NCBI GenBank assembly: GCA_039621445.1
Contig: CP154954.1
Location: forward strand, 27,979,457 to 27,999,456
Reading direction: 5' to 3'
Source of the DNA: Euglena gracilis
Taxonomy: Eukaryota
DNA length: 20,000 nucleotides
In this document: piece by piece, positions 6,301 through 12,300 of the stretch
Numbering within the stretch: the first letter of the stretch is position 1
Layout: every line of letters begins with the position of its first letter
Made by a program: the position numbers and the translations under genes
The notes under the pieces: model-generated
Database searches by the model: none
What the model was told of the DNA's origin: nothing
The model's input: only the letters and a program-made list of their open reading frames with translations

Positions 6301-9300
6301 CCCCAAGACAACCCCCCCCCCTGGGCGGCTGGCTCTTGGTTGAGAGGGAAGTGAGGTCCTCAAAGAGCGTTTTTCTGCCGAACCTCCAGCCAATTATTGA
6401 GCAGAACCGGAACCCCTGTGCACGAACCTCGACGAGGGTCGACCTGCACTCCACCCCACCCCGCCCCCCACCGCAGGGAAGTTCCTCAGCAGCCTGCGGG
6501 AGCACAGCCAGCCGGTGCTGGGCGTGGCGCTGGCGTGCGACGGCAGCGCAGCGGTGTCGGTGGCGCAGGACACGGGCGTCTGCCTGTGGCGGCTCAACCA
6601 AGGTGGGCCCTCTCCTCCTCATCCCCTCAACCTCCCACGGCAGCCGCCGCTGCCACAGTTCTTCGAAAGAATTGGTTTTTTGTATTTTTTTTTTCAGAAC
6701 GGCACGTTTCAAGTTTCCGCCAATTTGAGACAGCTGGTGATTGTCGATCTTCCCACTGATTTTCTGCAAAAAGAAGAAAGACATCAAAGTCAACCACCCA
6801 AAATAGAACCCTCTTGCTTGGGCAGGGGGGAAATTAATAGGCCTTAACAACTTTTTTTCCACAATTTTTCTGCAATTTTTCCGCAATTTTTTTCAGCATG
6901 AACCTGAAATGGAAGGCGAGCTGAGTTCCGGCCATCCCTTGAATGTTTCCCAAGGGAACCTGGGTGCTTTCTTGCCACCTTTGCAAGTTTTCCAAAATTC
7001 GCCAAATTTGTACAGATGGGCAAAATTTCCCAACTTCTCGTTCTCTTTAAAGGTTTCCCCCATTTTCTGCTGGGAAATATTTTTTCCACTCTGCGAATAA
7101 TGCCGCATCCTGGACCAGATTTTACCTTGAAACCAAATTTTTCGTCAATTTTTTTGTCATTTTCAGATTTTTCAGCAAACAAATTTTATATTTCTAAAAT
7201 CATCGTGTTCCCAAAATTACAAAAATCATGTGTAATTTTTTTTGTTGGAAGAAGTGTGGATAACAGCTCAAAATATTAACCAATGTTGCAAAATGGCAAT
7301 AATTGTGGATTTTTCCAAGTGTCCACCAGCGGAAGTGACTTTTCCAAGGCCGCAATTTCCGTAATTTTTCTGCAATATTTCCACAATTTCTGTAATTTTT
7401 CTGCAATTTTCCGCAATATTGGGAACCCCACAACCCTGTGGGCGATGGGGGGGGGTCGACCACCCCCCCCACCCCCCCATCCTGGTGGGGGGGGCTCCTT
7501 CCTGAACTTCCGGAGGCACTGATATTTAGGTCGAAATTTTGCTTTGGTGGTGCCTTGGCGGATGGGGGGGGTCGACCCACCCCCCCCCCAACAGGCCTTC
7601 CCGTACAGCCCTCCCCCCTGCATGGGATTTTGGTCGAGGATTTTTTGATTATTTTGTATGTGTTTCACCAGGTTTCCTCGGTCAAACCTGGTAAAAAATG
7701 CCAGGTTTCAATCTTTGCAGAATTTCCGCAGGGGCCAAAGATCGACCGACCCAAAAGATGGAGCCACACCAAAGCCAGCCCGGAAAATTCAGCAAATCAA
7801 AATAATCACCCGGGGACCTGTGGGGCGGGTCTTTCTGTGGCTTTCATTCTCCCAGGGCCTCCAGTGCGGACCAAGCGCGGGCATGTCAGCATCGTCACCT
7901 GTGTCGCCCTGGCCAAGGAGGGGCCCAGCGGCGTGTGGGCGCCTGTGGCGCCGTGGTTGGAAGCATCGGCCGCCGCGTCGTACATGTGTGGAGCACACCC
8001 CTACAGCGAAATCACTGCTAATACACAGGCGTTAAACCCCACCCCCCACTTATAAACCCCCCACTTATAAACCAGATTTTGAATAGTGCTGAGCTCTTAA
8101 TAAGCGCGCCCCCACCCCTTCATTGACCCCTCCATATAAACCGGCCCACTCCATGGAGCTCTTTGGACTGAAATGCAAGGGTTTTGTGCCCAAAACGGGG
8201 GGGGCGGGGGGTCGAAAAACGCTCATTTTCGGCTCAAAAAACACCTTTTCCGGGCCCGGGAGGCCCAAAAACATCGTTTCGGGCAAAAAAATTTTTTCGA
8301 TTTTTTTCGACCTTTTTGACCCGAAAATGACCCAAGGTCAATGGGTTGGCGGCCCAAAATGGGGGCAGGCGGGTCGAAAAACGCTCGTTTTCGGCTCAAA
8401 GACAGGTTTTCCGGGTCCGGGAGGCCAAAAAACATTGTTTCGGGCAAAAAAAATTCGATTTTTCTCGACTTTTTTGACCCCAAATTGACCCAAGGTCCAT
8501 TGGTTTCGGGCCCAAAACGGGGGGCGGGGGTCGAAAAACGCTCGTTGTCGGCCCGAAAACACTTTTTCCAGGTCCGGGAGGCCAAAAAACATGGTTTTGA
8601 GCAAAAAAAAATTCGATTTTTTTTTCGATTTATTCGATTTTTTGGCCGAAAACGGCTGACAGTGGAAAAAGTTTACAAAATGTCCCAAATTGGCCGAAAA
8701 ACGGCCGTGTATCTCGGGCTAGGCGGGGAGTTGTGGGGAAATCAAAATACCGGTAGATAGGGCATAATAGGGGCTTCAATTAGGTATCCGGACATTTCCT
8801 TTGATTTTGCATCATTTTCGAGAAATTTTGAAAACGTTGATTATGACCCTCCACCCCCCGAAAACGGCTAAGTCGGACAATGGGAAAGGTGTACAAAACG
8901 GCCATCTGGGCTGAAAAAAACGGCCGTATCTCGGTCTAGGCAGGGAGTTCCGGGAAAATCAAATGCCAGTAGATAGGGCTTCAATTTAGGTTTCCGGACA
9001 TTTCTTTTGATTTGGCTTCATTTTGGAGATATTTTGAAAATTGACATTTTTTTTGGCCGAAATGGCAGAGTCCAAAGGGTGGGGGGCTTAAAAAGGGGGG
9101 GGGTCGATCCTACCCAGTTTGGACTCCTTCGCGCGTGAATAACTTGGGCCTGGCGGGGAGTTGGGGGTCAAACCCAGGTGATTCGGAAACCGAAATACAC
9201 TCGCTCGCGACTGGAAAAAAAAATCTGGGAACCGGGCCGGGATCATGGTGATAATCCGTTGGTTCTCCCGGTGGCCCCGACCCGGGGGGGGGGGGGCGGG

Positions 9301-12300
9301 CGAGGGGGGGGTTCGCCAGGGGTGGGCTTCGCTCTTACCCTAAAGGGATGAGAGCTCAGCGACCCCTATCACCTATAAACCCCCCCTCGGGCCGACCAAC
9401 CAAACCAGATCATATAACCCCACCCCTGGGGAAGAATAATGGAAACTGCCGGGGACGATTTTTTCAGCCGCAAACCACCCAAAAACTGATTTTTTGGCAA
9501 TTTTTTGAGACCGACTATCGTCAAGAATTACATTTCTGACCAAATTTTCCAAAAACTGCCAACTTTGGGGGGTTTCAGGGTCATTTTGGGGGGATCGGAT
9601 TCTCACCAACAATTTCGGATCCTATAACCTCCCCCCCCCCCCCCTCCTTCGGCCGACCAACCAAACCGGATCCTATAAACCCCGGAGGTTTATAAGTGGG
9701 GGGGTTTATTTGTAAGGCGGAAATTTTCACAATTTTTTTTGTTTTTAAAGTCTTTTGTGGTTTTTAAGGTTTTCCAAGGCAGGTCCAAGGACCGTCCGAG
9801 CATCGAACAGGGTCCGAAATCAAAAAAAGTCAAAAAAACATTTTTTGAGTCTGGATGGATGGAAATGTTCCAGCGATGCCAGAAATAATTTTTTCCTGGA
9901 GTTGGCTTTTTTTACCGAGATTTTGCGAGTTCGATTTTGCTTGGTGAATTTTGAGAGAGTTTTTTTTTTATTTAAAGTTTGTAAGGCTTTTAAGGCGTCT
10001 TAAAAACAATGATGCCTGCTGATACACACACGATACACACACCCTGGGGGCATATCGGCTCCAATGCAACCGCCAAGGGGTTCGTACAACGATTTTGCAG
10101 GAGTCCCCAATGCGATCACCAAATAACACCCGCAGGAAAATTTGGCACCAAAACGCTGAGACAGAATAGCACATCCGTTTTTGGGCAATCATCTGCAACG
10201 CTTTACACCTAGAGCTATAACTCTAGACCTCCGTGGTTCTCGCTTCGTATGGTGCATGTGGCTGGATTCTGCCAAAGTTGTTTCTAGGTTCAATTTGAAG
10301 TTATTGGTGTTGCAGGGCATTCTCAGTCGGTTTACCAAATGAAACCAATGAAAACCCTGGGAGGTCCTAACAAAAACCTCCGAGAGTGATATTGGGGCAG
10401 AATTTCTCTGGCCAACGACTCCTCAACCTCACGTTTAACACAATTCTTTTGAGAAGTTGTGTTTTATTAATTTATTGTACCCCTTAAACATCTGGATCCT
10501 AATCGCACACGTGCCGTATCTTTTCCCCGGAGGTTTTCTTTCGCACTGAACTCTCAACCTTCGGCATTCAAGCCCCCCCCCCCCCCAGCGCTGATGACCG
10601 CCTGCCCACGCGGCGCTGCCTCCCACGGTGGCAGCCTCAGCCTCCGACGACCGGAAGGTCTACCTGTGGGACGTCCCCCGAGGTCCACCCCCTCTCCCGT
10701 CCACCGCTCCTCCGCTGCACGTGTCTGAGGCCGCCACATGGAACTCAGATGCCAGCCTGACACCCCAGCAGCAGGGGGAGAGCCTCCACACATGGGACCC
10801 CCCCCATCCCATACCGCAGGGGAGGTGCTGCACGCGCTGGAGGGGCACGCCGCCACCATCAGCTCCGTGGCGCTGGCGCGGGACGCCTCCCTCGTGGTCA
10901 GCGGCTCCCACGACTACGAGGCCCGCGTGTGGGTGGTGGCCACCGGTGTGCCCCGGACCCTGGGGTTGGGTTTGATTCGATCTGGGTCCTTGCCGGCATG
11001 GGGCTTGTCCCAGATGAGCAGGTAAACCCCATGTCGGCAACCTGGAAACCGCCTCAGAAAGGAAGTCCTAAAGTAGGGACCAAATCGAAAGCAATCCTCC
11101 TCCTCAGGTTTTCGATGCAAATTCAGGGGGGGCTATATGGTTTTTGGGATGCTCTTTGACACATATTTGGGATGCTCTCAAACATCTGTTTTATCCATCT
11201 TTTTATTCATTTAATAGGTTTCATATACCTCGAGACATATCTGGTGAAACCAAGTGTCAGCGACCTGGCTTGTTATCACAGGGATTACTTTTGTCCTTTT
11301 TTTCCGACGTGAAATCATGATCAACCTTTTTGCAGCAAATACAGACGCTTTGCCAAAAGGTTTTGCCCACAGTGGAGTATTTTCCCGCTTTTGTCAAAGT
11401 TTCATACTCAACAATGGATCAATGCAGTTCTGTAGGGGACCCAATCCCCCAGGGGGGGGGTCCAGCCAGCCAGCAGCCCAAATTCGGGCTGGGAGCCCCC
11501 CCCCGGGGGGGTCGAGTGAAATAAAGTTGGGTCCAGCCTGGCCGGAGGCCGGGCCAGCCTGCCGCAGGCTGGCCAGCCAAATGGGCAACCCAGCTCACCT
11601 ATCCCTGCATTTTTTCAGTAATTAGGCTGTTCCTCCAGTCCCGATCCAGCCTTGATCTAGCTCCATCCATCAAAATGTCGAAAATGGCAAAAAAAATTCA
11701 GAATTTTTTGTTTTTCATCGACCCAGCCCAGCCCAGCCCCCTCCAGCCCCGAACCCCCCCCTCCCCCCCCCCTATACCCCTGGGGGGGTCCAGCCAGCAG
11801 CTTTTTTTTGCCAGCTGGAGGCTGGACCCCCCCCCCGGGGGTCCTTAAGAAAACCCCTGTTCTGTACTGAAATTACAAATTTTCCCCGATTCCAATTGGC
11901 CCTCCCCCCTGCTGCATGTCGCACTCCATCCTTCATCCTCCTCCATTAACGTGTTGTTCACCTGCTGCCCCGGGGCGGCGGTTGTGTTGCCCACATCTCC
12001 GGCGGTGCATGGCAGGGGCGCTGCAGATGGTGCTGCGGCACAAGTTGTCCGTGTTGGCGGTCGCCATCTCCCACGATGGCCGCGTCGCCGCGACTGCCTC
12101 CGAGGACTTGACCGTGTCCATCTGGCGGACCGCCACAGGCATGGGGGGCAACGCTGGCCAGCCAATATGGTTGGACACACTACACCTCTCTTTAAGGTTT
12201 TAAGCCCCCACCCCTTGGGGGCTGCGGCCATCAGCCCTATTTCGTACAATGCGGGCAGATTATCATGGTGCTTCATGTCTGGCAGGAGTGATCCATATCT

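Follow-up and report, generated by a model that had tools for sequence, protein, structure and literature searches.

The analyzed window, a 20 kb stretch of DNA, contains a + strand gene for a long WD40-repeat protein with one repeat per exon. All nine single-exon translations searched against Pfam matched the WD40 family (E <= 0.0026), six of them above the gathering cut-off. When the exon 10820-10945 was searched against longer proteins, not one of the 21 candidates reached E <= 0.001, and no Rfam matches were found in the 20 kb window at gathering thresholds. The window is repeat-rich and ends in a 672-N gap.

Thirteen conventional introns were found in this gene, including 12 with GT-AG ends and one best read as GC-AG. 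All of them are in phase 1 and occupy the same repeat boundary; the two GT-AG introns next to the 2.7-kb intron described below lie at 6603-7855 and 10683-10819. The last 30 nt of these introns contain 48% C and 21% T, which agrees with the C-rich tract reported for E. gracilis (PMC11170887). Two further introns, read here as nonconventional (NC), are located inside repeats (Table 1). The smaller one can be placed in the register 4300-4618, where it has the form N3-CAG...CTG-N6 before an exon-start G, with 13/16 positions paired. The joint 12132->12802, reported with CC..CC ends, was also considered as an NC intron and was rejected: at shift 6 its ends are GC..AG, and it has the repeat-boundary position and phase of the 12 GT-AG introns. 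With CAG in register, its CTG lies 9 nt from the end, which also counts against an NC assignment. The C-rich polypyrimidine tracts and the mixed intron types of this gene are compatible with Euglena, and the euglenid assignment is based on such intron features. One coded species label is shared by all 24 sequencing runs listed.

Table 1. Features of the WD40-repeat gene and of the intron at 7923-10623 (positions in the window; "both" is the number of bases by which a joint can slide)
Feature	Position	Strand	Description
Second nonconventional intron	4297..4615	+	319 nt, GG..CA, slidable by 4 ("both" = 4); RNA joint
Exon, 5' half of WD40 repeat 8	7856..7922	+	67 nt, ...RGHVSIVTCVALAKEG; joints 6600->7854 (GT..AG) and 7922->10624
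Intron, very probably nonconventional	7923..10623	+	2701 nt, GC..CC, non-slidable; RNA joint
5' spacer N3 (GCC)	7923..7925	+	From sequence; agrees with PMC12501133, where the donor spacer is strictly 3 nt
Helix 5' arm, starts with CAG at +4..+6 (7926-7928)	7926..7941	+	In-register pairing; whole-intron fold
Nested repeat block	8043..9702		1.66 kb; an exact 16-nt inverted repeat marks its ends
Tandem array	8179..8621		158-nt unit, 2.8 copies
Helix 3' arm, finishes with CTG at -8..-6 (10616-10618)	10603..10618	+	In-register pairing; whole-intron fold
3' spacer N5 (CCTCC)	10619..10623	+	From sequence; equals the 5-nt acceptor spacer of PMC12501133
Exon, 3' half of WD40 repeat 8	10624..10682	+	59 nt, TVAASASDDRKVYLWDVPR; joints 7922->10624 and 10680->10818
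Slidable intron at conventional position	12139..12807	+	Reported CC..CC, "both" = 7; GC..AG at shift 6

The segment 7923-10623 is a real intron, excised exactly where it was predicted from the sequence. The joint 7922->10624, which skips 2701 bases with GC..CC ends and does not slide ("both" = 0), was found in RNA data among the best 15 of 137 joints inspected. It is supported by two assembled transcript contigs and seven raw RNA-seq reads belonging to four runs of four studies: one contig in X1 (depth 148.7), one contig in X2 (depth 118.3), five reads with five starts in X21, and two reads with two starts in X24. X21 and X24 are RNA-seq runs on record as RNA, and X1 and X2 are represented by transcript contigs; X1-X19 are labelled "RNA?", with shares of 0.07-0.20. 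The X1 and X2 contigs (4751 and 4810 nt) carry this joint together with the 14 other joints of the gene.

At 7922, the upstream exon terminates in ...GCCAAGGAGGG; the intron has GCCCAGCGGCGTGTGGGCG as its first and TGCCCACGCGGCGCTGCCTCC as its last letters, and the downstream exon opens with CACGGTGGCA at 10624. An earlier note on this DNA had proposed an intron without GT-AG ends at these borders and a junction of GCCAAGGAGGG with CACGGTGGCA; the RNA is cut at exactly these borders, and the identical junction is present in the transcripts. The rejoining of two WD40 half-repeats to 126 nt (67 + 59), proposed in the same note, agrees with both the coordinates and the translation. After joining, the reading frame stays open and encodes ...VALAKEG followed by TVAASASDDRKVYLWDVPR, a 42-aa WD40 repeat of normal length and the eighth in the window. 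Direct reading of the sequence also confirmed that the route from GT at 7933 to AG at 10587-10588 leads to CGC TGA.

Exon reads of X24 are nearly all first-mate-minus (e.g., 0 vs 3.43), which is consistent with + strand RNA. The depth of the low-copy intron bin 9878-10383 (0.17+0.18 in X21; 0.02+0.17 in X24) is far below that of the half-exonic bin 4818-5323 (2.41+3.5 in X21; 0+3.43 in X24); thus, removal of 7923-10623 is efficient.

The intron has the architecture N3-CAG...CTG-N5, with CAG at +4..+6 opposite CTG at -8..-6. Between +4..+19 and -6..-21, 15 of 16 positions are paired (13 Watson-Crick pairs, two G-U pairs, and one mismatch). With the borders fixed by RNA, this level of pairing was reached by a fraction of 1.35e-4 among 200,000 position pairs drawn at random from the window. 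For the other 14 introns of the gene, in-register pairing is 1-11/16. The 40-nt intron ends form a duplex of -45.5 kcal/mol in the cofold that had been recommended as a check; relative to dinucleotide shuffles, its z-score is only -2.1, owing to the richness of one end in G and of the other in C. Minimum-energy folding of the whole intron (2731-nt RNA) retains the pairs +4..+8:-6..-10 and +10..+18:-12..-20, giving 14 bp. Ensemble probabilities of these 14 pairs are 0.69-0.996, including 0.69, 0.95, and 0.99 for +4, +5, and +6 with -8, -7, and -6. The stem is thus predicted to form across 2.7 kb of repeat-filled RNA, as had been supposed. An extension of the helix to approximately 30 bp, obtained when the 40-nt ends were co-folded alone, was discarded; it is lost once the whole intron is folded, with +19..+38 then forming local pairs. 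No other copy of the 17-nt 5' arm was found in the window at <=3 mismatches.

The RNA is the decisive evidence for the borders, because the CAG/CTG helix alone is not unique in the window. Among 34,131 CAG...CTG pairs 30-6000 nt apart, considered without RNA, 15/16 pairing was also found for 7 on the + strand and, again of 34,131, for 6 on the - strand. Prediction of NC introns in the window from sequence alone was rejected as too unspecific on the basis of these counts.

The interior of the intron contains a nested block whose 16-nt terminal repeat is present as two tandem copies, at 8043 and 8058, and one inverted copy at 9687-9702. These three copies are exact; at <=3 mismatches the count of matches is seven, a number reached by 0/200 shuffles. 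The inverted ends of the block (I4/I5) are 95% complementary, and its depth is in the thousands in RNA-run contigs. None of nine intron ORFs (51-148 aa) had a Pfam match at E <= 0.01.

Such an interior, pieced together from interspersed repeats and with inverted ends of its own, raises the alternative that removal is stepwise, with sub-introns or the nested block cut first and the terminal helix closing a much shorter loop before NC excision. This order would parallel the removal of conventional introns before NC ones described for E. gracilis in PMC6221363, and 122 further joints exist beyond the best 15 of 137. Among those best 15, however, no joint lies inside 7923-10623, the ends of the block 8043..9702 have neither a CAG/CTG nor a GT/AG signature, and the terminal helix already reaches a probability of approximately 0.99 in the full-length RNA prediction. 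Stepwise removal is therefore considered unlikely.

Less probable still is a spliceosomal intron with degenerate GC..CC ends, removed by U2-type or variant machinery and merely assisted by the helix. U12-type introns have AT-AC or GT-AG ends and a conserved long 5' splice-site box; the present intron has GCCCAGCGG at its 5' end and terminates in CC. A 3' CC instead of AG at a non-slidable junction ("both" = 0) also speaks against the U2-type reading, even though a 5' GC is an accepted spliceosomal donor variant and 19/30 of the last intron nucleotides are pyrimidines. Clear GT/GC-AG ends and <=11/16 in-register pairs are seen in the gene's 13 conventional introns. The N3-CAG/CTG-N5 spacing, in contrast, is exactly that of the genetically defined NC code (PMC12501133), although spliceosome independence of NC splicing is said in PMC11170887 to need experimental proof. 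An artefact, i.e., an assembly error that produced the 2.7-kb insert or a junction arising by template switching or from a processed DNA copy, is scarcely credible: the repeats and terminal gap of the window could favor it, and a processed copy is excluded only through the RNA record of X21 and X24, but there is no junction direct repeat to promote template switching, the junction occurs in four runs of four studies, gene-strand reads cover the low-copy intron part at low depth (0.02 vs 0.17 in the X24 bin 9878-10383), contig pieces span 9647-10538, and a DNA-like run contains 0.72 of the sampled words of 4800-13100.

Thus, 7923-10623 is very probably a Euglena-type NC nuclear intron in a + strand WD40-repeat gene. 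The hallmark of euglenid NC introns is a helix of CAG at +4..+6 with CTG at -8..-6 that brings the intron ends together (PMC6221363, PMC4770533, PMC12501133), and the geometry recognized in the earlier note matches this published class. The intron is spliced out of the mRNA with borders that form no GT/C-AG pair, its 5' GC alone being canonical-like; +4, +5, and +6 are paired with -8, -7, and -6; and pairing continues past the trinucleotides in a stable helix (15/16; 14 bp in the fold). The code of Nomura et al. (2025), given as 5'-N3-CDG-/-CH'G-N5-6 before a purine exon start, plus pairing beyond the motif, fits 61.2% of NC introns in its full form (PMC12501133). Exactly 3 nt precede the CDG motif here (GCC-CAG) and 5 nt follow CH'G (CTG-CCTCC), whereas the base at 10624, in the third position of a Gly codon, is C. 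The intron therefore lies outside the 61.2% with the full signature and is still NC by the class definition. Direct repeats resembling target-site duplications, frequent and non-obligatory at junctions in the class, were not found at this junction ("both" = 0). NC introns account for 71.8% of E. agilis introns (PMC12501133) and for 16,151 of 28,337 catalogued E. gracilis introns (PMC11170887). In the latter catalogue, ss-invariant NC introns have a mean length of 538.8 and reach 4682, so that 2701 nt is inside the published range. The intron 7923-10623 is an ordinary member of a well-described, very abundant Euglena intron class, with small deviations.

CAG and CTG start the 14-15 bp helix, in which both cut sites are placed side by side. 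Judging from published work on the class, recognition would depend on the helix and on spacers of fixed length, 3 nt ahead of CAG and 5 nt behind CTG, and the excising factors would differ from the U2 spliceosome. The earlier statement that the NC machinery is unidentified agrees with PMC12501133, where trans-acting factors are still unknown in 2025. By analogy with the class, excision would follow the removal of conventional introns, which leave before NC ones in E. gracilis according to PMC6221363, and the intron may be released as a full-length circular RNA, as described for other genes in PMC11282704. The large size is best accounted for by an originally shorter NC intron that grew through nested interspersed repeats, among them the 1.66-kb block with inverted ends. 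The location inside a repeat, while all 13 conventional introns occupy a homologous repeat boundary, suggests that the repeat array, with its conventional introns, already existed when the NC intron was gained.

In the knock-ins of PMC12501133, the transcript was unstable when the exon-start base was changed from A to C, and none was obtained after G-to-T or G-to-C changes. A possible though doubtful reading is that 7923-10623 represents a natural, efficiently spliced, kb-scale exception to the purine rule, for which the long helix compensates. If so, spacing from the helix (3 nt and 5 nt) would be all that fixes the cut sites, the unusually long and stable helix of 14-15 bp, compared with typically a few bp in the class, would offset both the disfavoured exon-start base and a 2.7-kb transposon-filled loop, and helix strength would be a tunable part of the NC code.

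As a whole, the intron adds little to what is known, the class being not rare: it is one more validated example among hundreds of thousands per Euglena genome. Its modest value is that of a clean test case, since the non-slidable junction defines the cut sites to the base. A purine change at the exon-start C would be synonymous, so that the native gene would allow the purine rule to be tested directly. The example also indicates that NC splicing machinery copes with a 2.7-kb repeat-filled loop, and the gene layout, with 13 conventional introns at one boundary and phase vs two NC introns inside repeats, illustrates late, independent NC intron acquisition.

Among known systems, the noncanonical introns of hemistasiid diplonemids differ in having 3' ends without strong sequence bias (PMC12621601), whereas the Euglena-specific CAG/CTG register is present here. 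Inverted terminal repeats and a location within a coding repeat are shared with the introners and MITE-like elements described in PMC11282704; these repeats, together with the position off the conserved intron site, are consistent with later insertion. Unlike such elements, 7923-10623 has no detectable target-site duplication and no repeated family shown. Relative to the E. gracilis NC introns of PMC11170887, it is approximately five times the mean length. By the junction model of Milanowski (PMC3935182, PMC4770533), a 5' GC with a non-AG 3' end corresponds to the intermediate/nonconventional (I/N) subtype, and the 2016 paper (PMC4770533) counts I/N introns among the NC introns, as ones in which a 5' purine is retained. 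Three of the five junction preferences of Milanowski 2014, which are not requirements, are seen (G at 7923, C at 10623, C at 10626); the other two are not, as the upstream exon ends in G at 7922 rather than in the preferred pyrimidine (PMC3935182) and the downstream exon starts with the pyrimidine C at 10624. The junction direct repeats present in most described NC introns are also lacking. With respect to the NC introns of Nomura et al. (2025; PMC12501133), the downstream exon opens with C instead of a purine, and the knock-ins described there included 50-bp synthetic introns with no mention of a kb-scale one, vs 2.7 kb here. In all other compared features, namely the 3-nt and 5-nt spacers, the CAG/CTG registers with complementary middle bases, the extended pairing, the missing GT-AG pair, and the presence of conventional introns in the same gene, 7923-10623 resembles the introns of that work.

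The focal intron, in the plus-strand gene for a long WD40-repeat protein, comprises 2701 bases, starting with GCCCAGCGGCGTGTGGGCG and ending with ...TGCCCACGCGGCGCTGCCTCC at 10623. The upstream exon ends with ...GCCAAGGAGGG (last base 7922), and coding restarts at 10624 with CACGGTGGCA. The description of 7923-10623 in the earlier note, made without database searches, matches the window. As claimed there, the half-exons 7856-7922 (67 nt) and 10624-10682 (59 nt) rejoin to 126 nt, translated as PPVRTKRGHVSIVTCVALAKEG followed across the junction by TVAASASDDRKVYLWDVPR, a normal WD40 repeat. 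The nearest canonical route, from GT 7933 to AG 10587-88, indeed reads CGC TGA and hits a stop.

The decisive evidence for the intron is a transcript joint, meaning the last upstream exon base joined to the first downstream one. Four runs sharing one species label were aligned to window positions 3300-18450: two (X1, X2) consist of Logan contigs with the label 'RNA?', and two (X21, X24) of raw RNA-seq reads. The joints examined were the best 15 of 137. Among these, 7922->10624 skips 2701 bases with ends GC..CC, and it can slide by 0 positions in 4/4 runs. Since this joint was found in X1, X2, X21, and X24, excision of 7923-10623 without GT-AG ends, as proposed earlier, is confirmed. The same X1 and X2 contigs carry the 14 other listed joints and are therefore spliced transcripts. 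Nearly all X24 exon reads are first-mate-minus (0 vs 3.43 in bin 4818-5323), an orientation consistent with plus-strand mRNA. In the low-copy intron bin 9878-10383, depth was 0.35 (X21) and 0.19 (X24), far below the 5.9 and 3.4, respectively, in the half-exonic bin 4818-5323; the focal intron is therefore removed efficiently. A small amount of intron RNA from the gene's own strand remains.

Transcript joints and sequence features, in window positions
Feature	Position	Details
Joint, X1	7922->10624	one contig, 4751 nt, depth 148.7
Joint, X2	7922->10624	one contig, 4810 nt, depth 118.3
Joint, X21	7922->10624	5 reads, 5 starts
Joint, X24	7922->10624	2 reads, 2 starts
Joint	4296->4616	ends GG..CA; slidable by 4
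Joint	12132->12802	ends CC..CC; slidable by 7
Tandem array	8179-8621	158-nt unit
Repeat families	focal intron interior	common to other introns of the window
1.66-kb block	8043-9702	bounded at 8043/8058 and 9687-9702 by a perfect inverted repeat of 16 nt
Interspersed repeats	11542-11757 + 14883-15098; 2439-2515 + 8769-8845 + 8975-9051	77-86% identity
Intronic homopolymer G or C runs	9284-9303, 11754-11783, 12764-12787, 15156-15177	
(GT)n microsatellite	18492-18887	~400 bp
Assembly gap	from ~19.3 kb	672 N, beyond the microsatellite
Exonic single-base differences from all transcript contigs	3705, 4037, 4049, 5133, 5168, 5189, 5988, 6508	mostly T>C, C>T or G>A; most raw reads agree

A terminal 16-bp stem with CAG opposite CTG had also been proposed. 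With the borders fixed by RNA, CAG (+4..+6) does face CTG (-8..-6), and +4..+19 and -6..-21 pair in register at 15/16 positions (13 Watson-Crick pairs, 2 G-U pairs, and 1 mismatch). For 200,000 random position pairs in the window, the mean was 6.1/16 and the fraction reaching 15 was 1.35e-4. The gene's other 14 introns score 1-11 of 16 in register. When the complete intron is folded with 15-nt flanks, its minimum-energy structure (-948.7 kcal/mol) retains +4..+8:-6..-10 and +10..+18:-12..-20, and 14 helix pairs have ensemble probabilities of 0.69-0.996. By this predicted fold, a stem closing the 2.7-kb loop, as the earlier note supposed, appears thermodynamically plausible. Co-folding of the 40-nt ends gave -45.5 kcal/mol, a z of only -2.1 against dinucleotide shuffles; this energy was attained by 0.9% of 1469 GC-matched pairs. 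An extension of the helix to ~30 bp, obtained with the ends folded alone, is lost in the full-intron fold. In a blind scan, CAG...CTG pairs with at least 15/16 were found at 7/34,131 (+) and 6/34,131 (-), and the focal intron would not be identified from sequence alone in such a scan.

Inside the focal intron, 0/9 ORFs matched Pfam and no Rfam match was found; its interior is a repeat mosaic. Contig depth in the RNA runs is in the thousands over 7854-9877, which therefore holds high-copy elements. The 1.66-kb block, nested in the intron, has the appearance of a transposon-like element of high copy number with inverted ends; at the left end its inverted repeat stands as two tandem copies. The simplest history would be a shorter intron enlarged by nested insertions. 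The interspersed families (e.g., 11542-11757 and 8769-8845) occur both in the upstream region and in more than one intron of the gene. The intronic G/C runs gather pile-ups of RNA-seq reads that end in long loose G/C stretches (e.g., X21, 9301-9303: 121-139 reads), probably through low-complexity cross-mapping, not local expression.

Spliced at the joint coordinates, the window contains a 577-aa open frame in which each exon encodes one WD40 repeat. All 9/9 single-exon translations match Pfam WD40 at E <= 0.0026, and 6/9 score above the 27-bit cut-off. GT..AG ends were found in 12 of the listed joints (best 15 of 137), the three exceptions being 4296->4616, 7922->10624, and 12132->12802. The last of these, at shift 6 of the sliding analysis, is GC..AG. 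This intron (12133-12808) has 7 equivalent positions, its GC-AG reading lies at the repeat-boundary position of the 12 GT-AG introns, and it is probably a GT-to-GC variant; its unshifted reading has CAG at +4..+6. All 13/13 GT/GC-AG introns are in phase 1 and split the final Gly codon of a repeat. The other two introns interrupt repeats internally: repeat 3 after 59 nt (phase 0) and, by the focal intron, repeat 8 after 67 nt (phase 2). The second nonconventional (NC) intron, in register 4300-4618, fits N3-CAG...CTG-N6|G with 13/16 paired. The last 30 nt of the conventional introns, at 48% C and 21% T, correspond to the C-rich tract described in E. gracilis (PMC11170887).

The GT-AG intron 3799-4005 has strongly pairing ends (40-nt end duplex -39.8 kcal/mol, 11/16 in register) and lacks the N3-CAG / CTG-N5-6 register; it is a candidate 'conventional/intermediate' intron of the older nomenclature. 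Conventional intron 10946-12015 contains a CAG...CTG pair at 11447-11916 (470 nt apart, 15/16 in register), possibly an NC-like or inverted-repeat element nested there; its excision had no support among the best 15 of 137 joints. The (GT)n microsatellite directly follows the last WD40 exon in the window (...RRASG) and presumably marks where the next intron begins. The exonic differences are likely strain or allele differences, and judging editing needs same-strain DNA.

The Euglena NC code is given as N3-CDG-/-CH'G-N5-6|R(exon), with a donor spacer of strictly 3 nt, an acceptor spacer of 5 nt (6 tolerated), and required motif-adjacent pairing; of all E. agilis introns, 71.8% are NC, the code fits 61.2% of these, and the trans factors are described as not yet known (PMC12501133). 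In E. gracilis, 4,498 + 11,653 of 28,337 listed introns are NC, with means of ~520-540 nt, maxima of 4,682 and 5,931 nt, and the consensus CCAGG at +3..+7 and CCTG at -9..-6 (PMC11170887). Other accounts report pairing of +4,5,6 with -8,-7,-6, removal after conventional introns, excision as full-length circular RNAs, lengths from dozens to several thousand nt, and a mechanism described as unresolved (PMC6221363; PMC11282704).

The focal intron agrees with this code in spacers, motif, and pairing; these features together with the transcript joint support its reading as a euglenid NC intron, and it belongs to a well-known, very abundant class. The code expects a purine at the downstream exon start, whereas the focal exon starts with C, a base that was deleterious there in knock-ins (PMC12501133). 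For a native NC intron, efficient splicing with an exon-start pyrimidine and a long helix is mildly unusual. This C (10624) occupies the third position of a Gly codon, so a purine there would be synonymous. A pyrimidine is preferred at the upstream exon end (PMC3935182), whereas the focal one ends in G. Unlike in most described NC introns, the junctions have no direct repeats. Under the 2014 nomenclature, the 5' GC would make the intron 'intermediate/nonconventional', a group treated in 2016 as NC introns retaining a 5' purine (PMC4770533). Similar end-pairing introns occur in hemistasiid diplonemids, with no 3' motif reported (PMC12621601).
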